A stretch of 24,873 bases of DNA from a virus: the UHGV virus genome UHGV-0240820; one strand, given 5' to 3'. The translations under genes and the position numbers were made by a program. The notes under the pieces were generated by a model that did no database searches, was not told the DNA's origin, and was given only the letters and a program-made list of their open reading frames with translations. Shown piece after piece: positions 4,059 to 24,786 of this stretch (positions are counted from its first letter, which is position 1; each line of letters begins with the position of its first letter).

Positions 4059-4073
4059 TTACCTGAAAGGTAA
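4059..4073. promoter_or_regulatory. dyad TTACCTGAAAGGTAA (operator-like)
   Basis: One of six TTACC-N5-GGTAA sites; intergenic. Confidence 0.45.
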
Positions 4074-4163
4074 TAATTCGCGCATTAAATGTCAACTGTC
4101 TACGATAAATAAATCATATGTGGTTAAATTGGTAATAATTTAATTGCGTACGGAGTCATTGAT

Positions 4164-4370
4164 ATGTGCATGGGTAGCTCACCATCAGTGCCTGCAACAC
4201 CAGAAGTTCAGGCAGCACCACAGGAGCAGGATGCCGCCGTTGTTGATGCCCGCGACGAAGAAACTCGTCGCCGTCGCGCTGCTGCTGGTCGTAGTTCTAC
4301 GCTGCTTACCGGTTCTCAGGGCGACACATCAACTGCTAATACCAGCGGTAAAACGCTGCTTGGTCAGTAA
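4164..4370 (+). CDS. hypothetical small protein (68 aa)
   Basis: ATG preceded by CGGAGTCATTGA, a 12-nt string identical to the portal translation-initiation region at 4372-4383. Low-complexity Ala/Arg-rich product, so coding status is uncertain. Confidence 0.35.
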   Translation: MCMGSSPSVPATPEVQAAPQEQDAAVVDARDEETRRRRAAAGRSSTLLTGSQGDTSTANTSGKTLLGQ

Positions 4371-4384
4371 CCGGAGTCATTGAA

Positions 4385-6064
4385 ATGGCGGAAACAACTA
4401 AAGAGCGATTGAACAAACAGTTCGCACAACTTGAAAGCGAGCGTCAGTCGTTCGAGCCGCACTGGCGCGAGTTGAGTGATTACATCAACCCGCGTGGTTC
4501 CCGCTTTCTGACTTCTGAGGTTAACCGTAACGATCGACGCAATACACGCATTATTGATTCGACCGGGACTATGGCGGCGCGCACTCTCGCCAGCGGCATG
4601 ATGTCAGGCATCACAAGCCCCGCGCGTCCGTGGTTTCGCCTGGCTACGCCAGATCCTGAAATGATGGATTATGGCCCTGTTAAGTTGTGGCTTGAGGCGG
4701 TGCAGAACCGCATGAACGATATGTTCAATAAGTCGAATCTCTATCAGTCGCTGCCGCAGTTATACGGAAGCCTCGGCACATACAGCACTGGTGCAATGGC
4801 AGTGCTGGAGGATGACGAGGACATCATTCGCACAATGCCATTCCCGATAGGCAGTTACTACCTGGCTAACTCACCTCGTGGCAGTGTGGACACCTGTTTT
4901 CGCAAGTTCTCTATGACTGTTCGTCAGCTTGTTCAGGAGTTCGGGCTAAATAACGTCAGCGAATCCGTAAAAAGCATGTGGGAAAGCGGAACCTACGAGA
5001 AGTGGATTGAAGTGATGCATTCGGTTTACCCGAACATTGACCGCGATACATCGAAGCTGGATAGCAAGAACAAGCCATTCAAATCGGTTTATTACGAGGT
5101 TGGTGGCGATAACGACAAGTTGTTGCGTGAGTCCGGATTCGATGAGTTTCCAATTATGGCTCCGCGCTGGGAAGTTAACGGCGAAGATGTTTATGGATCA
5201 TCATGCCCGGGTATGCTGGCGCTTGGACCTGTTAAGGCATTGCAGCTTCTCCAGAAGCGCAAGTCGCAGTTGATTGATAAAGCCACCAATCCGCCGATGG
5301 TTGCTCCGACTTCCCTCAAGAATCAGCGCGCCTCCCTTCTTCCTGGCGACATCACGTATATCGATCAGATTACTGGTCAGGATGGTTTCAGGCCTGCTTA
5401 TCTGGTTAACCCCAGTACAGCAGATTTGGTGGCAGACATTCAGGACACTCGTCAAATCATTAACAGCGCCTACTTTGTCGATCTGTTCATGATGTTGCAG
5501 AACATCAATACCCGCTCGATGCCTGTTGAAGCGGTGATCGAAATGAAAGAAGAAAAACTTCTGATGTTGGGGCCGGTTCTGGAGCGTCTGAACGACGAAT
5601 GTCTTAATCCTCTCATTGACCGCTCTTTCTCGATGATGGTGCGTAAAAACATGCTGCCGCCACCGCCTGACGCGATGGAAGGCATGCCCCTGAAGGTCGA
5701 ATACATTTCCGTCATGGCTCAGGCGCAGAAGTCTATCGGCCTGTCCAGTCTGGCGTCCACGGTTAACTTCATTGGTCAACTTGCGCAAGCGAAACCAGAA
5801 GCTCTCGACAAACTCAACGTTGATCAGGCGATCGATGCATTCGCTGATATGTCCGGAGTGTCTCCAACCGTCATTGTTCCGCAGGAACAGGTTGAGCAGG
5901 CTCGCCAGCAACGGGCACAGCAACAACAGCAGCAACAAATGATGGCGATGGGGATGGCGGCGGCACAGGGTGCCAAGACGCTAAGCGAAGCTAAAACTTC
6001 GGATCCGAGTGTTTTGTCAGCTATGGCGAATGCAGTTAGTGGTCAGGGTGGGCAATCACAATGA
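4385..6064 (+). CDS. portal protein (podovirus type)
   Basis: 559 aa, located after the terminase genes. Gln/Met/Ala-rich C-terminal tail (QQRAQQQQQQQMMAMGMAAAQGA) resembles the T7 gp8 C-terminus as I recall it. Confidence 0.85.
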   Translation: MAETTKERLNKQFAQLESERQSFEPHWRELSDYINPRGSRFLTSEVNRNDRRNTRIIDSTGTMAARTLASGMMSGITSPARPWFRLATPDPEMMDYGPVKLWLEAVQNRMNDMFNKSNLYQSLPQLYGSLGTYSTGAMAVLEDDEDIIRTMPFPIGSYYLANSPRGSVDTCFRKFSMTVRQLVQEFGLNNVSESVKSMWESGTYEKWIEVMHSVYPNIDRDTSKLDSKNKPFKSVYYEVGGDNDKLLRESGFDEFPIMAPRWEVNGEDVYGSSCPGMLALGPVKALQLLQKRKSQLIDKATNPPMVAPTSLKNQRASLLPGDITYIDQITGQDGFRPAYLVNPSTADLVADIQDTRQIINSAYFVDLFMMLQNINTRSMPVEAVIEMKEEKLLMLGPVLERLNDECLNPLIDRSFSMMVRKNMLPPPPDAMEGMPLKVEYISVMAQAQKSIGLSSLASTVNFIGQLAQAKPEALDKLNVDQAIDAFADMSGVSPTVIVPQEQVEQARQQRAQQQQQQQMMAMGMAAAQGAKTLSEAKTSDPSVLSAMANAVSGQGGQSQ

Positions 6065-6357
6065 CAGATTACGAAGACGATCAACTGAAAGAAGAAAACG
6101 CCCGTAAGCAACGTGACATGGCACAGCGTGAAATTGATGACATTTGCTTTGTCATGAGCAGTGAACAGGGGCGTCGCGTTGTCTGGTCGGTGCTGGAGAA
6201 AGGCCGTGTGTTTTCCGCTATCTCACCGATGGACGCTATGGCAATGGCATTTAATGAGGGGCAACGCAATCTGGCGCTGGAACTGTTTCAGCGCGTTATG
6301 GCGCATTGCCCTGAACAGTATTTGAAGATGGCCAAAGAGGCCAGTGAACAGGAGTGA
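6061..6357 (+). CDS. hypothetical protein (98 aa) between portal and scaffold
   Basis: ATGA overlap with the portal stop; acidic, helical-looking. Confidence 0.55.
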   Translation: MTDYEDDQLKEENARKQRDMAQREIDDICFVMSSEQGRRVVWSVLEKGRVFSAISPMDAMAMAFNEGQRNLALELFQRVMAHCPEQYLKMAKEASEQE

Positions 6358-7069: not shown

Positions 7070-8056
7070 ATGGCTGTTAAAGGCTTAACTGCGCTAACGC
7101 TGGCTGACTGGGGTAAGCGCGTCGATCCAAACGGGAAAGTCGATAAGATTATCGAGCTTCTCGGTCAAACTAACCCGATCCTTCAGGATATGCCTTTTGT
7201 CGAAGGGAACCTTCCTACCGGACACCGAACCACCATTCGTTCTGGTTTACCTTCAGCTACCTGGCGTTTGCTGAACTATGGCGTACAGCCAAGCAAATCA
7301 ACCACAGTGCAGGTAACCGATTCCGTTGGCATGCTGGAAACCTATGCGGAAGTCGATAAGTCACTGGCTGATCTGAACGGCAATACCGCCGAATTCCGCC
7401 TGTCTGAAGACCGCGCATTTATTGAAGCGATGAATCAGCAGATGGCGCAGACGCTGTTTTATGGTGATTCCAGCGTTAACCCTCAGCAGTTTATGGGACT
7501 GTCCTCCCGCTATTCCAGCCTGTCTGCGGGTAATGCTCAGAACATCATTGATGCTGGTGGCACGGGTACAGATAACACCTCAATCTGGTTAGTGGTGTGG
7601 GGCGAAAACACCGTGCATGGCATCTTCCCGAAAGGGAAGAAGGCTGGCATCCAGATGGAAGATAAAGGCCAGGTGACACTGGAAGATGCTAATGGCGGCA
7701 AGTACGAAGGTTATCGCACCCATTACAAATGGGACAACGGACTTGCTCTGCGTGACTGGCGTTATGTTGTTCGCATTGCAAACATCGATGTCAGCAATCT
7801 TTCAGAACCATCCTCTGCCGCAAATATTGCCAAGTTGATGGTTAAGGCACTGCATCGCATTCCAAACCGTGGCATGGGCCGCCCGGTGTTCTACATGAAC
7901 CGCACTGTAGGCCAGGCTCTTGATCTGCAATCTCTGGAGAAAACATCTCTGGCTATCAGCGTAAAAGAGACTGAAGGCGAGTGGTGGACTTCATTCCGTG
8001 GTGTACCAATCCGTGAAACTGATGCGCTTCTGGAAACAGAAGCCCGCGTGGTGTAA
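7070..8056 (+). CDS. major capsid protein
   Basis: ~328 aa, after the scaffold gene and before a hairpin. Start placed at ATG 7070 (GAGG 7058-7061 at 8 nt spacing); alternative ATG at 7064. Confidence 0.75.
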   Translation: MAVKGLTALTLADWGKRVDPNGKVDKIIELLGQTNPILQDMPFVEGNLPTGHRTTIRSGLPSATWRLLNYGVQPSKSTTVQVTDSVGMLETYAEVDKSLADLNGNTAEFRLSEDRAFIEAMNQQMAQTLFYGDSSVNPQQFMGLSSRYSSLSAGNAQNIIDAGGTGTDNTSIWLVVWGENTVHGIFPKGKKAGIQMEDKGQVTLEDANGGKYEGYRTHYKWDNGLALRDWRYVVRIANIDVSNLSEPSSAANIAKLMVKALHRIPNRGMGRPVFYMNRTVGQALDLQSLEKTSLAISVKETEGEWWTSFRGVPIRETDALLETEARVV

Positions 8057-8107
8057 CGCCTGTTATTAACCTGTGGGTCGTAACAGACCCACTAATGGAG
8101 AAAGAAG

Positions 8108-8545
8108 ATGATCACCGACAAACTGTTGATGTTCTCCGAAGCTCAGGCGGTTACGAATACCGCGGCTTCTACTGACGTAATCGACCTCGGTCCAATTGAC
8201 GGAAAACGTCGTGATATCGGCGTGGGTTACCCGCTTGAGTTTTGGGCGCTGGTTAACGCAGCCGCCGCGGCAAGCGGTGATGCAACTGTAAACATCCAGT
8301 TGCAGACGAGTGAGAATAACAGCTCATGGACCACTATTTATGATAGTGGCGCACTGGCAAAGACCGCCCTGACAGCAGGTAAACGAGTTGTTTCTGCAAA
8401 GGTGCCTGCCGGTGTTCAGCGATATCTGCGTGTTAACTACTCCGTCGCAACTGGCCCACTAACGGCTGGCAAATTCACTGCGGGTATCAGTCTGGATGTT
8501 GATGCCAATACGCCGTACCCGATCCGCTCAAAAGTAACTGGTTAA
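8108..8545 (+). CDS. hypothetical virion protein (145 aa), possibly a capsid accessory/decoration protein
   Basis: GGAG at 8097-8100. Gly/Ala/Thr/Val-rich, beta-rich composition. Function is by position only. Confidence 0.5.
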   Translation: MITDKLLMFSEAQAVTNTAASTDVIDLGPIDGKRRDIGVGYPLEFWALVNAAAAASGDATVNIQLQTSENNSSWTTIYDSGALAKTALTAGKRVVSAKVPAGVQRYLRVNYSVATGPLTAGKFTAGISLDVDANTPYPIRSKVTG

Positions 8546-19191: not shown

Positions 19192-20043
19192 ATGAAAAAA
19201 ATAAATTTGTTTTTTGGCATAGTGCTTTCAATAGTCTCTGTAAATCCTACAGCTGCCAGTTCATTGCAATGCAATAAGGATAACTTTGATGCATGCAAAA
19301 CGTGTGAACAATTATCAAAGGCTATCGACTTAAAAGAACCTAATCGTGGCGATTACTATAGAGGGGCTTTATGGAATGGGCTTTACGCCTCTTATGTAAT
19401 TAATTGCCCTGTGGTTGCTGAGAAGTTACTGAGCCATGGTGCTATACCATCATATGGCGGATATATGGGGTCTATGGGGGCGGTTCTGACAGGAAAATGG
19501 CCTCATAACAATGAATCAATAAATCTTTCATGGGCAGATTTGCTTATAAAACATGGATTTGATGTTAATAGGCATACGGGGAATTATAAATCAGCTACTG
19601 AAGTATGGGCTATAGATAAAAAACAGATTGAATATAAGTCAGTTTTTGACAAGTTAATTCAATCCAGCGAAGTAAAACCACTCGATCCTTCAAGAAATTT
19701 AGAATGGTGTGCGTCTGAAGGGTATCGCTCAGTTGTCGTTTATTCCCTTAACTCATGTATAGAAAATGCTATAAAACGTTTGGATGATGGTGTTTCTTCA
19801 GCGTCTGATATTTCATCAGCAGCCGTAAATTCCTGTACTAGCGATGTAGAAAATTTCAATAAGCATTTGGCATGCAAAGCAGCTGTTAAAGAAAACTCTG
19901 ATAAAGAGAGAAGCGACGTTTACCAGTTATTAACCAGTGATAGTCAAATGAATAAAAATGTTATTGATATGCTGAAGGAAAGAAATATTGAAACGGTTCT
20001 TGAATTTAGAGCTGAAAATCGATCAGCGAAAACTGCACAGTGA
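19192..20043 (+). CDS. secreted protein of unknown function (283 aa, AT-rich moron)
   Basis: N-terminal signal peptide (MKKINLFFGIVLSIVSVNPTAAS), about 10 Cys, AT-rich codon usage unlike the structural genes. Start is 1 nt after the gp16-like stop. Confidence 0.6.
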   Translation: MKKINLFFGIVLSIVSVNPTAASSLQCNKDNFDACKTCEQLSKAIDLKEPNRGDYYRGALWNGLYASYVINCPVVAEKLLSHGAIPSYGGYMGSMGAVLTGKWPHNNESINLSWADLLIKHGFDVNRHTGNYKSATEVWAIDKKQIEYKSVFDKLIQSSEVKPLDPSRNLEWCASEGYRSVVVYSLNSCIENAIKRLDDGVSSASDISSAAVNSCTSDVENFNKHLACKAAVKENSDKERSDVYQLLTSDSQMNKNVIDMLKERNIETVLEFRAENRSAKTAQ

Positions 20044-20049
20044 TCAAAC

Positions 20050-20074
20050 AGGCCGCTTTCGCGGCCTTGTTTTT
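20050..20074 (+). terminator. intrinsic terminator
   Basis: AGGCCGC, loop TTTC, GCGGCCT, followed by TGTTTTT. Confidence 0.75.
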
Positions 20075-20234
20075 AACGAATGCCACCGCCGCCCGGGCGG
20101 GAATCCGCAGAACGCCCACCGCAGCGGGAGCCGTCAGCAGCAGTGTCGCTGTCGTGCTGACAACGACCGGCAAAGGCCTGAGTTGAAGCTACCAGAGACA
20201 ACAAAACGAACAGTGCAGCAAATGCTTTTTTCAT
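20073..20234 (-). CDS. small exported peptide candidate (53 aa)
   Basis: Internal Met of ORF 20073-20306 starts a classic signal peptide (MKKAFAALFVLLSLVASTQAFAG) followed by a 30-aa Gly/Arg/Asp-rich tail with 2 Cys. GC-rich, in contrast to its flanks. Confidence 0.35.
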   Translation of the reverse strand: MKKAFAALFVLLSLVASTQAFAGRCQHDSDTAADGSRCGGRSADSRPGGGGIR

Positions 20235-20315
20235 TGTGAAATTTCCATCTATAAGCCACCTCAATGTGGCGTCAATGAGTGTAGCACTGACTTTTGTTTC
20301 GTCCATAAAAAACTA

Positions 20316-20828
20316 CTATGCAGGCTTTTTGGATTTGTACGAATAATCCCACGGATAAACATTTCTACTAAGTGGAGCTGTATTCGTTCGTTCATGAAAT
20401 AATTTTGTGAAATTCAATACGGAATCCATCCAAACTTTTGCGTTAGCTTTGGTGTGTGCGGGCGGGTCCCAATAAGCTAGTAAGGCTGCATCTCTTATTT
20501 CATTGACTGCATATATGAGATATGCGTTACTGGTTGGTTTTGGCCTGTAATTTCCTTGTTCATCAATCAATCCATATGACCACTCATCCCAACACTGTTC
20601 AGTACATGAGTATGAATATGATGCATATTCACCAATATTGACATGAACCTTTCTGAGATGGAAGCCTAATACTTCGTCTGGTCTTTCAAAAAGAGTATCT
20701 TTTCCCAGATCAGGATGATGACCATGACGCCAGTGTTGTTTAAAAGCATCTTTTAGCGAAATCAGAAAGTCATCAGTTTTAAACTCACCAGTAGGTATAA
20801 CCTTCCCGCTATACTCACTCAAAAACAT
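20316..20828 (-). CDS. hypothetical protein (170 aa); candidate toxin/effector of a two-gene module
   Basis: Strong RBS (AGAGGA at 5 nt spacing). His cluster (HWRHGHH) and a Cys/Trp-rich segment (YSCTEQCWDEW). Start overlaps the upstream gene's 3' end by 14 nt. AT-rich. Confidence 0.55.
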   Translation of the reverse strand: MFLSEYSGKVIPTGEFKTDDFLISLKDAFKQHWRHGHHPDLGKDTLFERPDEVLGFHLRKVHVNIGEYASYSYSCTEQCWDEWSYGLIDEQGNYRPKPTSNAYLIYAVNEIRDAALLAYWDPPAHTKANAKVWMDSVLNFTKLFHERTNTAPLSRNVYPWDYSYKSKKPA

Positions 20829-21141
20829 CGAATTCCTCTTCCTTCATATGCGTTTCTAATGAGTTAAGCTGGCGGAAAGATATCTCTTTTGATTCTGCAG
20901 ATGAGAGCTTTTTTATCCGCTTGATATTCTTTGTGATAGGAATAGACATTGTATGCACATCAGCGGATGCTCTTGGCTTTGTGCTGATAAAAATATGGCG
21001 CAATGCCGCATTTTCACTATTGAACGAGCCAATAGCTGATTTACGTGCTACAACCTTACCAGTAAAAATACGACTCTTGCTACGCTTTGCATGAGTTCCG
21101 CTTCTTACCGGACCTCTCATCACGAATCCAAGTTTTGTCAT
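20815..21141 (-). CDS. hypothetical basic protein (108 aa); candidate partner (antitoxin/regulator?)
   Basis: GGAG RBS. Arg/Lys-rich N-terminal half and acidic C-terminus (HMKEEEFDVFE). First gene of the overlapping pair. Confidence 0.5.
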   Translation of the reverse strand: MTKLGFVMRGPVRSGTHAKRSKSRIFTGKVVARKSAIGSFNSENAALRHIFISTKPRASADVHTMSIPITKNIKRIKKLSSAESKEISFRQLNSLETHMKEEEFDVFE

Positions 21142-21183: not shown

Positions 21184-21226
21184 TTACCTTTAAGGTAATA
21201 GTACGCTATTCACCCCCGGTCTGCAA
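21184..21226 (-). promoter_or_regulatory. candidate sigma70 promoter with overlapping operator dyad
   Basis: Minus strand: -35 TTGCAG (21221-21226), 17-bp spacer, -10 TACTAT (21198-21203), overlapping dyad TTACCTTTAAGGTAA (21184-21198) by 1 bp. Confidence 0.45.
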
Positions 21227-21270: not shown

Positions 21271-21927
21271 TCAGAAGAACCCTGCTTTGTCGTTGATGTA
21301 CTCCGCGTGCGTCTGGATATCACGCAGGCATTTGCTCACACCGACGATGTAGCAGAACATGGTGGTCAGTTCCGCCGCCGCGCCCGATACGTCGTGCCCG
21401 TCTTCCTGTAACTGGTTCAGCAGATTCATCAGCAGTGAGTTCTCCGTCAGGCCGAGAACACCAGACGGAGAATGAATCAGGCTGCGGTAGCCGGGCTTCA
21501 GCGGGGCACTGTATTCTTTTTTGTCTTCCAGCTTGATCGCCTCCATAATGGCGGGCATGAAGCCTGACAAGACCTTCTCCACTTTTGTTTCTTGTTGTCT
21601 TAAACGTTTCTCGCATTCAATGAAGTAGCGTCGCACCTGGCGACCTTTTTCGTTACGCTCGACCATCGCCAGCTCTTTGGCTGTATCAAGGGTGAGGTGG
21701 TACTCTTTGCGGTTGTGGCCGCCTCTACCAGATGTTTGCTTTCCCAAATTGGAAAGCAAAATATAGTCTTGATTTTCAATGAATTCGTATTCTGATATGC
21801 GATTTGTAATCCATGCTGCAAACACCTTTTTAACACCTAAAAAAGCGTGCAGATCGCGGGCATTACAAAGTAGGGCTGTTTCGTTAGATATAGTGCCGTT
21901 GAATACGGGGATGAGTTGAGCGTTCAT
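21271..21927 (-). CDS. phage antirepressor (AntA/Bro-N-type N-terminal domain plus C-terminal domain)
   Basis: N-terminal sequence ([12 protein letters not shown]...[32 protein letters not shown]) matches the conserved AntA-type antirepressor domain as I recall it. GGAG RBS. C-terminal 80 aa are paralogous to ORF 23077-23334. Confidence 0.75.
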
Positions 21928-22085
21928 GATGGCGTCTCCACTTAGCGAATTACATCACCACCGCTGAGACCAATCAGATGGTGGTGAACTGAACGGAGTT
22001 GGTCTTACCGGCCTAAGTGGTACCGGCGTCCTTTCGGACCCCCATTCAGCCCACCATAATTCTGGCATGACTGTGCTATACGCAT

Positions 22086-22108
22086 AAAAAAACCACGTCT
22101 GGCGTGGT
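22086..22108 (-). terminator. intrinsic terminator-like element (minus strand)
   Basis: On the minus strand: stem ACCACG/CGTGGT (22092-22097 / 22103-22108) followed by a T7 run (plus-strand A-run 22086-22092). Confidence 0.5.
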
Positions 22109-22200
22109 ATGCGCCACTTAGTAATCCGGGAGACCAATCCCGGCACTGGATTTTGCCAGTGCCCGATTACTATGGCACAAGAGGAGTGCGATGTAAATTT
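22086..22200 (-). ncRNA. structured non-coding leader or sRNA candidate
   Basis: No ATG on the minus strand across 22086-22200. Hairpins at 22126-22143 (6 bp) and 22142-22163 (8 bp) share two nucleotides. Ends in a terminator-like hairpin. Confidence 0.3.
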
Positions 22201-22213
22201 ACCGCAAAGGTAA
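22199..22213. promoter_or_regulatory. dyad TTACCGCAAAGGTAA (operator-like)
   Basis: On the minus strand a -10-like TATCAT overlaps the dyad by 1 bp, with TTGATT 17 bp upstream as a candidate -35. Confidence 0.45.
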
Positions 22214-22291
22214 TGATAAGCGCGAATAAATATCAAAATCAACCGTATTTGGTTGATGGAGTTTAATGCTTGATCACCTGAAAGCAAGATA

Positions 22292-22306
22292 TTACCTTTA
22301 AGGTAA
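22292..22306. promoter_or_regulatory. dyad TTACCTTTAAGGTAA (operator-like)
   Basis: Identical to the 21184 site; 21 bp upstream of the ATG of the 242-aa gene; preceded on the plus strand by AGATAT. Confidence 0.45.
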
Positions 22307-22326
22307 TGTTATTGTGAGGAAAAGCA

Positions 22327-23055
22327 ATGGAAGTTTTCTGGATAGTTGTTGGTGTGGTTGCGGTGATTATTTACGTTATCAACCAGAACAAGACTAAGAT
22401 CTCTGATCGTACGGTCGTTAATCATAACAAAACGATAAAGACCGAAGATGGGGAGATAACGATTAATCGTACACAGGTGATAGAACACACCTCTACTCAG
22501 TTTCAAAAAACTGGAGGTAATGCGCCTAATATTTCCGCACCTCCTGCTTATGATAGTGCGGTAATCCAGACATATTATAAACAGCAGGAGTTAGCAAAAG
22601 AGAGGCAACTGATTCAGCCAAAGCCATTTACAGCAGAGCTTCCACATGGAGTGTCAACGCGTCCGGCATATCATGGAAGATTCCCTGGTGATGACACATC
22701 GTCTCAGTCACCTAAAAAAGCACCTCAGGCAGTATCAGAGCCAGCAAGAATACCTTCTGTATCGCCGTCAAAAGAAGAATCAGCTAACGAAGTTTCAAGT
22801 GCCCGCAAGCAGTGTTTGCGATGCAGAATAACCCTTCCATATGAAAAATTCAGGAAATCGTCAAAAAATCCAGATGGATTGACTAAGTGGTGTGCAAGGT
22901 GTCTCGATGGCCCAAAGAATACACGCCATATGAAGTGGTGCCCAATTTGTAATGTCCGCAGAAAACGAACCAGTTTTTACCCTAATAATCAAAATGCGGA
23001 TGGCTTAATGGCATGGTGCAAAACGTGCTGGGACGAGCACAAAGCGAAACGATAG
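22327..23055 (+). CDS. membrane-anchored protein with C-terminal tandem zinc-ribbon-like repeats (242 aa)
   Basis: N-terminal TM helix (FWIVVGVVAVIIYVI), Pro/Ser/Gln-rich linker, then two repeats of C-x2-C ... DGL ... WC-x2-C. GAGGA RBS. AT-rich. Followed by a terminator. Confidence 0.6.
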   Translation: MEVFWIVVGVVAVIIYVINQNKTKISDRTVVNHNKTIKTEDGEITINRTQVIEHTSTQFQKTGGNAPNISAPPAYDSAVIQTYYKQQELAKERQLIQPKPFTAELPHGVSTRPAYHGRFPGDDTSSQSPKKAPQAVSEPARIPSVSPSKEESANEVSSARKQCLRCRITLPYEKFRKSSKNPDGLTKWCARCLDGPKNTRHMKWCPICNVRRKRTSFYPNNQNADGLMAWCKTCWDEHKAKR

Positions 23056-23079
23056 GCCGCTCTTGCGGCCTTTTCTTTA
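23054..23079 (+). terminator. intrinsic terminator
   Basis: AGGCCGC, loop TCTT, GCGGCCT, followed by TTTCTTTAT; nearly identical to the terminator at 20050-20074. Confidence 0.7.
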
Positions 23080-23334
23080 TCTGGTTTGCTTTCGTAATTG
23101 TTCGGCACAATAGTCGAGATGTGTTTGCAGATCCTGCATAGACATCTGTGAGCTGGTGACGTAGTTAATCAGTGCAGTCAGTTCGGCAAGTGGGCCATCG
23201 ACATTAAATCCATCCTTATCGAGATCCCGGAGTAATTTCATCAAGTGCGATCCCTCCACCAGTGACCTGACGCCTCCCGGCGTGTGAATCCTTTCGGTAA
23301 ATCCGTCTTCCAGTGGATAGTGATACTGCTGCAT
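23077..23334 (-). CDS. stand-alone antirepressor C-terminal-domain paralog (85 aa)
   Basis: About 50% identical by eye to the C-terminal 80 aa of the antirepressor at 21271-21927. Start placed at the internal ATG 23334 (GGAGAAG RBS); the longer ORF to 23457 lacks an RBS and spans the operator dyad. Confidence 0.5.
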   Translation of the reverse strand: MQQYHYPLEDGFTERIHTPGGVRSLVEGSHLMKLLRDLDKDGFNVDGPLAELTALINYVTSSQMSMQDLQTHLDYCAEQLRKQTR

Positions 23335-23410
23335 CTTATCTTCTCCATGCAATAACTGTATGTTTATACAGTAACAAATAATTTGTTTGCTATCCAGCAC
23401 GTTTTGCAAA

Positions 23411-23425
23411 TTACCCGAAAGGTAA
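23411..23425. promoter_or_regulatory. dyad TTACCCGAAAGGTAA (operator-like)
   Basis: Lies between the divergent antirepressor-paralog and tail-spike starts. Confidence 0.45.
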
Positions 23426-23529
23426 TATCTATTGGTATTTATAGTCTTTTTATCCATATATGGTTTTTCAGGTAATAGAATAACCAGATATGCGGCGCAA
23501 CGGGTGCTGCGACTATCTGGAGATTTAAC

Positions 23530-24786
23530 ATGACGGTCTCAACCGAAGTTGACCACAACGAATACACCGGTAACGGCGTTACGACATCGTTTCCGTATAC
23601 TTTTCGAATTTTCAGAAAATCAGACCTGGTTGTTCAGGTGTCTGATCTGAACGGAAACGTAACAGAATTGGTCCTGGATACCGGTTATACGGTAACTGGG
23701 GCGGGCACTTATAGTGGCGGTTCTGTGGTTCTTCCGTCTCCGCTTGCTACTGGATGGCGAATTACGATAGATCGTGTGCTTGATGTAGTGCAGGACACAG
23801 ACCTTCGCAATCAGGGAAAATTTTTCCCCGAAGTGCATGAAGATGCCTTTGACTACCTGACGATGCTGATCCAGCAATGTTTTGGGTGGTTCAGACGTGC
23901 ATTGATGAAACCATCTTTGCTTGCAAAATATTACGATGCAAAGCAAAACAAAATTTCTAACCTTGCAGATCCATCATTTGAGCAGGACGCTGTAAATAAT
24001 CGCTCAATGCGTAATTATGTCGATGCTGCAATCGCCGGAGTTGTTGGTGGTTTTGGTTGGTTTATTCAGTATGGTTCTGGGGCTGTGTACCGAACGTTCC
24101 AGGATAAAATGCGTGATGCTATTAGCCCCAAAGATTTTGGAGCTGTTGGTGATGGTATAAATGACGATTCCACTGCAATAAGCGCGTGCCTTGAAGCCTC
24201 ATCTCCAGGTTATAAAATTGACGGATTAGGGCTTACTTTTAAAGTATCAACTCTTCCGGATGTCAGTCGATTTAAAAATGCTCGTTTTTTATTTGAGAGA
24301 ATACCGGGCCAGCCTCTTTTTTATGCTTCTGAAGATTTTATCCAGGGAGAGTTATTTAAAATTACAGATACACCGTGGTACAACGCCTGGACGCAGGATA
24401 AAACGTTTGTATATGACAATGTCATCTATGCGCCTTTTATGGCTGGAGACCGCCATGGTGTAAATAACCTCCATGTTGCATGGGTTCGCTCAGGAGATGA
24501 CGGGAAGACCTGGACAACGCCGGAATGGCTTACAGATTTACATGAAAACTATCCCACAGTTAACTATCACTGCATGAGTATGGGGGTTGTCAGAAATCGC
24601 CTTTTTGCTGTAATTGAGACGCGGACCGTGAGAGGAAATAAACTGCAGGTTGCAGAGTTGTGGGATCGCCCAATGAGTCGCAGCCTTCGCGTTTATGGTG
24701 GTATAACGAAAGCAGCAAATCAGCAAGTCGCTTATATTCGCATTACTGATCACGGATTGAACCGCCCCGGGAATCCTGGAGACTAA
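23530..24786 (+). CDS. tail spike/fiber protein, 3'-disrupted by IS insertion
   Basis: GGAG RBS. N-terminal ~140 aa resemble the T7 gp17 particle-binding domain (from memory). DFGAVGDGINDD motif and an Asp-box SGDDGKTW (24491-24514). From ~24758 the reading frame runs into IS terminal sequence; the last ~9 codons and the stop are IS-derived. Confidence 0.7.
   Translation: MTVSTEVDHNEYTGNGVTTSFPYTFRIFRKSDLVVQVSDLNGNVTELVLDTGYTVTGAGTYSGGSVVLPSPLATGWRITIDRVLDVVQDTDLRNQGKFFPEVHEDAFDYLTMLIQQCFGWFRRALMKPSLLAKYYDAKQNKISNLADPSFEQDAVNNRSMRNYVDAAIAGVVGGFGWFIQYGSGAVYRTFQDKMRDAISPKDFGAVGDGINDDSTAISACLEASSPGYKIDGLGLTFKVSTLPDVSRFKNARFLFERIPGQPLFYASEDFIQGELFKITDTPWYNAWTQDKTFVYDNVIYAPFMAGDRHGVNNLHVAWVRSGDDGKTWTTPEWLTDLHENYPTVNYHCMSMGVVRNRLFAVIETRTVRGNKLQVAELWDRPMSRSLRVYGGITKAANQQVAYIRITDHGLNRPGNPGD

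Follow-up and report, generated by a model that had tools for sequence, protein, structure and literature searches.

A putative SOS-gated antirepressor and a chimeric paralog behind an antisense-RNA leader in an epsilon15/phiV10-like phage genome

RESULTS

Two ant genes with a common Ant-type domain

The virus genome UHGV-0240820 was analyzed as a stretch of 24,873 nucleotides (nt), hereafter the window, which comes from a temperate podophage or prophage of epsilon15/phiV10-like (Uetakevirus-like) type, represents its structural-gene half, and extends from the small terminase gene to a tailspike gene with endosialidase domains. Its minus strand carries two antirepressor (ant) genes, which occupy a variable region with ejection-protein genes on one side and the tailspike gene on the other. 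The long gene (positions 21271 to 21927) encodes 218 amino acids (aa), with an AntA domain at aa 22 to 92 (21652 to 21864; Pfam PF08346, 91.8 bits against a cutoff of 27, E = 4e-26) and an Ant-type C-domain at aa 135 to 216 (21280 to 21525). The small gene (23077 to 23334), which begins with MQQYHY and encodes 85 aa, is separated from the long gene by 1,150 nt. A previous sequence-only reading had described an antirepressor with an AntA-type N-domain and a C-domain, an 85-aa gene matching the C-domain alone, a shared strand, a distance of about 1.1 kb, and operator dyads upstream of both genes; all of these features were confirmed, with the dyads located at 23411 to 23425 for the small gene and at 22199 to 22213 and 22292 to 22306 for the long one.

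The pairwise alignment that the sequence-only reading had called for proved significant. In BLASTP, the small protein (small Ant) aligned with aa 134 to 210 of the long protein (long Ant) with 34 of 78 positions identical (44%; E = 5e-20), and the Smith-Waterman score of the pair was 164, against 24 +/- 4.5 in 2000 shuffles (z = 31, with no shuffle scoring as high). Both proteins matched phrog_450 (E = 1e-47 for small Ant and 4e-36 for long Ant), and both matched chain E of PDB 5D50 ("Anti-repressor protein," 86 aa), from the Ant/Rep switch of Salmonella phage SPC32H, small Ant over aa 2 to 84 of its 85 residues (phmmer, E = 4e-47) and the long C-domain over aa 137 to 213 (E = 5e-14). Seventeen alignment columns were invariant across the small-Ant and long-type C-domain subfamilies. 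No nucleotide-level similarity was found between the two copies, which, together with an amino acid identity of 44%, indicates an old paralogy; a recent local duplication was ruled out on the same ground. A search for a third copy of the Ant domain within the window found none.

The small gene is an ortholog of SPC32H ant

Small Ant was approximately 88% identical to the annotated "ant" product of SPC32H (KC911856; tblastn), of which it is an ortholog, and pairwise ratios of nonsynonymous to synonymous substitution rates (dN/dS) of 0.06 to 0.16 indicated strong purifying selection. Among 50,697 phage records searched, homologues of the repressor Rep were present in 37, of which 36 were full length and the remaining one was a partial Pseudomonas cI match. 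Small Ant was present in 35 records, a set that nearly coincides with the 36 full-length Rep records, and the long-type copy of the domain appeared only as a second hit, in records containing small Ant as well. The small gene points away from the tailspike gene and lies downstream of the genes for ejection proteins, as in Uetakevirus-like genomes. A word-indexed protein search with small Ant returned orthologs only; the fused architectures surfaced when 1.84 billion representative proteins were searched exhaustively with a profile, a search that identified 59 members of the Ant family, the majority of them stand-alone proteins of 80 to 95 aa and the others fused behind AntA, Bro-N, pRha, or ORF6N domains.

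The region upstream of the small gene contains a near-consensus LexA (SOS) box, TACTGTATAAACATACAGTT (23354 to 23373, minus strand), whose perfect CTGT-N8-ACAG core (23356 to 23371) lies 21 to 36 nt upstream of the ATG, and a GGAG Shine-Dalgarno sequence at 23343 to 23346. A dyad of the form ATTACC-N5-GGTAAT (23410 to 23426) lies in the same promoter, its TTACC-N5-GGTAA portion 77 to 91 nt upstream of the ATG. LexA boxes were found at the matching position in SPC32H, phiV10, Tyrion, Klebsiella ST512, and vB_EcoP_ZX5 (ZX5), and the promoter as a whole, comprising dyad and LexA box, was conserved in six phages from four host genera, with invariant dyad arms and a variable spacer. In SPC32H, ant is under LexA control (Kim and Ryu 2013, as cited in PMC7380047), and self-cleavage of LexA leads to the production of Ant, which inhibits the lytic repressor by protein-protein interaction (PMC7380047); Ant has been described as a tetramer that binds two Rep dimers (PMC9638917). 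By homology, small Ant is predicted to form tetramers, bind Rep, and free it from DNA as SPC32H Ant does. Its distribution and promoter suggest that it is the lineage-wide partner of Rep, with the SOS-gated control expected of a primary inducer.

A longer call for this gene (126 aa; 23077 to 23457, minus strand) was rejected, as the extension spans the LexA box and the operator and is interrupted by stop codons in Tyrion and in the Klebsiella relative. A 126/127-aa version is called in many database entries, including one cluster of 833 members. The extra 41 codons showed no conservation as coding sequence, and the longer version is a widespread start-site misannotation.

The long gene is a mosaic

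The C-domain of the long protein is not a stand-alone, LexA-controlled protein of approximately 86 aa but is fused behind the AntA domain, and its sequence places it as a paralogous domain outside the small-Ant orthologous group. It too was under purifying selection (pairwise dN/dS, 0.05 to 0.29). The long gene was missing from the Salmonella members of the lineage (epsilon15, SPC32H, and SPN1S) and was present in Enterobacter phage Tyrion, in most of the Escherichia coli members, and in some of those from Klebsiella. No LexA-like site was found at 21928 to 22330 with one mismatch allowed, so that long Ant would lack an SOS input.

Nucleotide comparisons gave a different set of matches for each part of the long gene. 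The leader (22221 to 21954) matched phiV10, ZX5, Tyrion, and Klebsiella sequences at 78 to 82% and TL-2011b at 94%, and the C-domain with its downstream sequence (21546 to 21182) matched the same E. coli and Enterobacter phages at 83 to 95%, but not Klebsiella. The segment encoding the N-domain (21953 to 21547) matched none of those phages and was 92.6% identical in nucleotide sequence to the ant gene of an Stx2a phage. The corresponding slot encodes a Bro-N domain in ZX5, TL-2011b, and Tyrion and an ORF6N domain in E. coli Ecol_AZ162, and a P22_AR_N-Ant fusion is present as a further copy in TL-2011b. The C-domain was nearly identical across the Bro-N, ORF6N, and P22_AR_N fusions, and the last 80 aa of the long protein were identical to those of ORF4, the ZX5 protein encoded at this position. 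In total, the long-type C-domain was found grafted onto at least five N-domains (AntA, Bro-N, ORF6N, P22_AR_N, and pRha), and the same AntA N-domain was found in the lambdoid phage PA16 with an unrelated P22_AR_C C-domain. Since the C-domain and leader are kept, the N-domain is exchanged, and the PA16 AntA domain is joined to P22_AR_C, the C-domain appears to track the immunity (Rep) type, and long ant is best regarded as a chimeric accessory antirepressor gene with an interchangeable N-domain. The possibility that the Ant domain is a distant relative of P22_AR_C, as found in Stx-phage AntA proteins, was considered and rejected (hhalign probability, 0.5%).

The AntA genes of the Stx phages PA16, Stx2_Ech14022, and P13374 were preceded by sRNA-Xcc1 (RF02221); an isrK/C4 leader of the type described below was sought before them and was not found, and the junction of the N-domain swap is therefore placed at the start codon. 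In Stx2_Ech14022, sRNA-Xcc1 occurred twice in tandem, and AntA-like sequence followed each copy; the match after the first copy spanned approximately 270 nt only. Three Ant-domain genes were present in TL-2011b (7277 to 8221), namely the small one, the Bro-N fusion, and the P22_AR_N fusion. In phiV10 (4071 to 4750), the long gene was split into a 194-aa Bro-N protein and a 29-aa open reading frame (ORF), and the C-domain match was broken in two, suggesting that the Ant-like domain contains a frameshift or a sequencing error.

An isrK-like RNA and a C4-type antisense RNA precede the long gene

The leader of the long gene, whose promoter and RNA elements lie on the minus strand, has a predicted promoter, PisrK (22169 to 22197; TTTACA, a 17-nt spacer, and TG-CATAGT), identified by a promoter scan. 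Its -10 region, TTGTGCCATAGT, was invariant in six phages. The promoter ends 7 nt upstream of position 1 of the isrK model, and a Rep-type dyad directly precedes it. The isrK-like RNA (22086 to 22162; Rfam RF01394, 67.7 bits against a gathering score of 50) ends in an intrinsic terminator, consisting of a hairpin and a U-run, and is followed by a C4-type antisense RNA (21977 to 22061; Rfam RF01695, 61.2 bits against a gathering score of 45). The C4 model scored 68 to 78 bits in the six related loci scanned. The long gene was preceded by an isrK element and a C4 element in every locus that was examined, namely the window and six others; SPC32H, which lacks the long gene, has neither element.

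The C4-type RNA carries two recognition motifs, b' (CCACTTAG, 22013 to 22020) and a' (AGACCAA, 21999 to 22005). Exact complements of both occur once in the isrK element, as a1 (TTGGTCT, 22131 to 22137) and b1 (CTAAGTGG, 22114 to 22121), and once more downstream, within 21936 to 21973, as a2 (TTGGTCT, 21967 to 21973) and b2 (CTAAGTGG, 21938 to 21945). The b2 target overlaps the GGAG Shine-Dalgarno sequence of long ant (21936 to 21939), an arrangement that suggests a translational block by the C4-type RNA. Three b'/a' specificity types were distinguished over six phages (CCACTTAG/AGACCAA, CCTTTTAG/ACGCCAA, and CCTTTGTAG/AGACCAA), and both target pairs covaried with them; the sole lapse was an imperfect b1 copy in the isrK element of Tyrion.

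Leader translation revealed a candidate 37-codon ORF (21955 to 22068, minus strand) that overlaps C4 and ends 27 nt before the long-ant ATG. This ORF may be a counterpart of orf45 of the Gifsy-1 prophage. Its ZX5 equivalent is 114 nt long and is annotated as an "ash family protein." An icd-like gene coupled to ant was looked for in the window and was not found, with the 37-codon ORF being the only one between the leader and ant. In Ecol_AZ162 (5001 to 6219), the isrK/C4 leader was separated from the ORF6N-Ant fusion by a 168-aa ORF of unknown family, an order that recalls c4-icd-ant of P1.

Rep-type operator dyads

The dyad TTACC-N5-GGTAA occurred seven times in the window, against 0.46 copies expected. 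In SPC32H, there were 18 copies against 0.48 expected, including 3 between rep and the divergent cro-like gene and 3 at the early-left operon, downstream of rep. Dyads also surrounded rep, as in SPC32H, in the nearest complete E. coli relative (in strain MB31), whose Rep matched chain A of PDB 5D50 (E = 4e-42) and was 42% identical to SPC32H Rep. Their sequence and placement make it very probable that Rep uses the dyads as operators.

Upstream of the long gene, one dyad (22199 to 22213) abuts the -35 hexamer of the leader promoter, and another (22292 to 22306) lies in the divergent region between that promoter and the oppositely oriented gene ORF242. The long-gene dyads are thus 270 to 380 nt upstream, at the promoter of the structured RNA leader and away from the coding sequence. 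In six phages, the arms of the leader dyad and the ATTTACA that follows it were conserved, and the 5-nt spacer varied. Further Rep-type dyads were located at 848 to 880 (two adjacent copies at the start of the small-terminase ORF) and at 4059 to 4073 (upstream of the portal operon), and SPC32H has dyads at the equivalent places. These dyads may mean that late operons are direct targets of the repressor, or that the site is shared with another regulator.

Neighboring genes

ORF242 (22327 to 23055, plus strand) is inserted between the two ant genes on the opposite strand, with a Rep-type dyad approximately 20 nt upstream of its ATG. Its predicted product is membrane anchored, with an N-terminal transmembrane helix and a Cys-rich C-terminal region with CxxC motifs; it matched phrog_6762 (6e-147) and, weakly, Stc1, and showed a weak likeness to endonuclease-VII-like zinc ribbons. 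ORF242 is lacking here in ZX5, phiV10, and Tyrion, and TL-2011b has only a misc_feature there ("similar to hypothetical protein"). ORF242 is cargo and lies outside the antirepressor system. A GC-rich, terminator-like hairpin (23054 to 23071), found by a consensus terminator scan, separates ORF242 from the converging small ant gene.

The tailspike gene (from 23530 to 24786 and continuing past the end of the window) encodes an epsilon15/T7-type N-terminal adaptor followed by End_N_terminal, End_beta_propel, and End_beta_barrel domains. The endosialidase domains indicate a K1-capsule-targeting Uetakevirus-like phage; in relatives, the same slot is occupied by glycosyl hydrolase 28, SGNH hydrolase, or other receptor-binding modules. 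On the other side of the ant genes, a 170-aa YafO-family toxin-like ORF overlaps an upstream 108-aa ORF (phrog_5933) by 14 nt (20316 to 21141, minus strand), with a Rep-type dyad (21184 to 21198) just upstream of the pair. This pair looks like a toxin-antitoxin-like moron, possibly under Rep control. Two ORFs that resemble lysogenic-conversion cargo lie on opposite strands of a low-GC segment (19192 to 20306; 38 to 40% GC): one of 283 aa, whose N terminus is signal-peptide-like (phrog_6118), and one of 77 aa, which contains a hydrophobic segment of signal-peptide-like character.

DISCUSSION

Two predicted Rep antagonists under two circuits

The preferred reading, to which a probability of roughly 0.7 is assigned, is that the phage encodes two Rep antagonists with one effector fold and two different input circuits. 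In a lysogen, host LexA would shut the small-ant promoter, probably together with Rep bound at the neighboring dyad. Once DNA is damaged, LexA would be cleaved and small Ant synthesized; its tetramer, by homology to the SPC32H complex, would capture two Rep dimers and break the DNA-binding Rep tetramer. The 218-aa protein would act as a diverged Ant-domain paralog behind an exchangeable N-domain. From a Rep-operated promoter, the isrK-like terminated RNA and the C4-type antisense RNA would be produced, and the a' and b' loops of C4 would pair both with the isrK targets and with the target pair over the long-ant Shine-Dalgarno sequence. Long Ant would be made only if Rep were absent or inactivated, that is, on fresh infection or after small Ant had fired, and only if, in addition, a threshold set by the antisense RNA were exceeded. 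Since the long form would not sense SOS and would appear only without active Rep, a feed-forward latch or a second input channel is favored. Mixed tetramers of small Ant and the long protein are conceivable. A pro-lytic effect of the long form has been shown for ZX5, in which overexpression of ORF4 lowered the lysogen titer from 1e9 to 1e6 and rep mRNA by 75% (PMC9782041).

A more ambitious version of this scheme, put forward tentatively and as rather doubtful, would treat the Ant fold as a portable repressor-targeting module that is used twice: SOS would release free Ant, Rep would be lost, and the cassette would then lock induction or open an SOS-independent route. If this were true, the 5D50 structure would provide a structural account of the variable C-terminal halves of antirepressors as a choice of target repressor.

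Several points weigh against the preferred reading. E. coli and Salmonella phages share 88% identity in small Ant and only 42% in Rep, and the rules of Ant/Rep specificity are therefore not simple to read off; in Klebsiella phages, the identities are approximately 60% for Ant and 45% for Rep, so that the two proteins diverge out of step. The long C-domain is 38 to 44% identical to small Ant, and its interface with Rep may differ. An AlphaFold2 model of the 218-aa protein, built from an 18-sequence alignment, was unusable (mean predicted local distance difference test score, 42), and its homology to 5D50 is a sequence-level one. The rep gene lies outside the window, and the cognate Rep was deduced from relatives and from the operator dyads. 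Furthermore, if Rep represses PisrK, the long form alone could not start induction, and the latch is a matter of logic rather than data. The ZX5 ORF4 assay used a glutathione S-transferase-tagged, overexpressed whole protein, and the domains were not separated (PMC9782041). Finally, AriS of Listeria, a two-domain "antirepressor," carries out SOS inhibition and post-induction regulation by separate domains (PMC9043618).

Alternative roles for the two proteins

The main rival explanation, judged unlikely, is that the long form serves anti-immunity or cross-talk: made transiently on infection before C4 RNA accumulates, in the manner of P1 or P22 Ant, it would target chiefly the Rep of other resident epsilon15-like prophages rather than, during induction, that of its own phage. 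A cassette design homologous to P1 immI, with C4 and a/b targets, would suit this role, as would C4 specificity motifs that differ between phages like those of the heteroimmune P1/P7 pair, a C-domain that has diverged to 44% identity with small Ant, and the presence of up to three C-domain copies per E. coli genome; the phiV10 annotation even names the long gene "anti-immunity." However, the cassette promoter has the lineage-wide Rep-type dyad, so that a resident Rep of the same specificity would silence the cassette on entry. The long-type C-domain is also nearly invariant in E. coli phages, and so is Rep (98.5 to 100%), which fits self-targeting.

It is less probable still that the long protein is not an antirepressor at all and that its Ant-like C-domain is an oligomerization module for an N-terminal DNA-binding regulator, as in AriS. 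AntA, Bro-N, and pRha are predicted DNA-binding domains, Ant is a tetramer (PMC9638917), and the AntA domain of AriS regulates phage genes after induction, making the label "antirepressor" misleading there (PMC9043618). A core function of the N-domain is nevertheless hard to reconcile with its free exchange while the C-domain and leader are kept. The confinement of the C-domain to Rep-bearing phages and the 1000-fold cut in lysogeny on overexpression of ZX5 ORF4 (PMC9782041) likewise argue against this reading.

The sequence-only reading had taken the long protein as "the" antirepressor and had proposed that the short one could be a dominant-negative subunit or decoy. Tetramerization of the common domain in SPC32H Ant (PMC9638917) makes mixed oligomers imaginable, and the two genes are neighbors in many genomes (of 5426 complete E. 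coli genomes, approximately 529 have the small gene and approximately 470 the long-type C-domain). Yet in SPC32H, where a long form is missing, the ortholog of the short protein acts as an antirepressor by itself, the short protein is the apparent lineage-wide partner of Rep while the long form is optional, and the short gene has the SOS-gated promoter expected of a primary inducer. A modulator role for the short protein is therefore very improbable, and the roles in that reading are reversed, the long gene being the accessory mosaic partner. Its other proposal, a duplication remnant, taken here as one copy decaying after a local duplication, would account for two paralogous genes on the same strand 1.15 kb apart but is already contradicted by two intact ORFs under purifying selection (dN/dS, 0.06 to 0.16 and 0.05 to 0.29), separate conserved regulatory regions including the LexA-gated promoter of the small gene, the lack of nucleotide similarity between the copies, and the combination of the long-type subfamily with five different N-domains.

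Prevalence and novelty

Of 5426 complete E. coli genomes, 529 contained the small gene together with its promoter and 470 the long-type C-domain, the latter in up to three copies per genome, so that each gene occurs in roughly 9 to 10% of these genomes. The arrangement is real and largely known, and both genes belong to known kinds; the AntA fusion of 216 to 218 aa routinely bears the annotation "antA/AntB antirepressor family protein." Three points are modestly new: the shuffled C-terminal module of the long proteins has the SPC32H-Ant fold, the Ant module appears to track the Rep immunity type, and one phage appears to use the module under two different circuits. No prior statement of these points was found in the searchable literature, which excluded the two primary SPC32H papers.

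The analysis corrects a natural misreading, as the small "hypothetical" gene appears to be the master inducer in these phages; phrog_450 is still labelled "unknown function," and small Ant has no Pfam family. It also joins two literatures that, in the library searched, do not cite each other, one on the structure and LexA control of SPC32H Ant and the other on the long "anti-repressor" of ZX5. Domain exchange in nature has in effect performed an experiment, whose outcome points to the C-domain, and not the AntA, Bro-N, or ORF6N front end, as the part matched to the repressor type, and the locus offers a tractable system in which one repressor would integrate an SOS input and an antisense-RNA-gated input.

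Comparison with known systems

The leader cassette resembles immI of P1 and P7 (c4-icd-ant1/ant2) in its C4-family RNA (RF01695), whose a' and b' motifs face one upstream and one downstream target pair, in the location of the downstream pair over a ribosome-binding site, and in the AntA-family domain encoded downstream, the repressor operator at the promoter, and the variable specificity motifs. It differs in that b2 covers the ant Shine-Dalgarno sequence directly, with no icd-like gene, and in that the upstream targets lie in an isrK-type terminated RNA. Furthermore, the effector C-domain is SPC32H-Ant-like, whereas ANT/KilAC domains are linked to P1/P7 Ant1/Ant2 (PMC9043618), and the window derives from a podovirus with a helix-turn-helix Rep, in contrast to C1 of P1.

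In the isrK-orf45-anrP region of Gifsy-1 (Hershko-Shalev et al. 2016; PMC4825925), an isrK RNA with a leaky terminator likewise precedes a short ORF or processed RNA region and then an antirepressor gene. There, translation of the read-through mRNA is activated in trans by the short IsrK, which acts through a small upstream ORF, and prophage induction by the antirepressor encoded downstream takes place under non-SOS conditions (PMC4825925). Unlike the present phage, Gifsy-1 is a lambdoid prophage, and its system feeds into AntQ.

Listeria AriS (Azulay et al. 2022; PMC9043618) is similar in having alternating N-domains before a constant C-domain. Its constant domain is ANT/KilAC and inhibits the SOS response, whereas the constant domain in the window has the SPC32H-Ant fold and is also encoded by a free-standing gene in the same phage.

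ORF4 of vB_EcoP_ZX5 (Li et al. 2022; PMC9782041) shares with the long gene its genomic slot, its isrK/C4 leader family, and its last 80 aa, and the small Ant of ZX5 is 100% identical; the N-domain differs, being Bro-N in ZX5 and AntA in the window. The ZX5 paper treats ORF4 as "the" antirepressor, and the small Ant, annotated as hypothetical, and the RNA leader are unmentioned there (PMC9782041).

The closest counterpart of the small gene is found in the Ant/Rep switch of SPC32H (Kim and Ryu 2013; Kim et al. 2016; PDB 5D50 and 5D4Z), whose ant gene encodes a protein of the same length and about 88% identity, is likewise divergent from the tailspike gene, and has the same combination of LexA box and dyad in its promoter; the long C-domain of the window falls in the same fold family (E = 5e-14). 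The Rep proteins of SPC32H and the nearest E. coli relative, however, share only 42% identity, and SPC32H has the small gene only, whereas the window has a second, fused paralog downstream with another control circuit.

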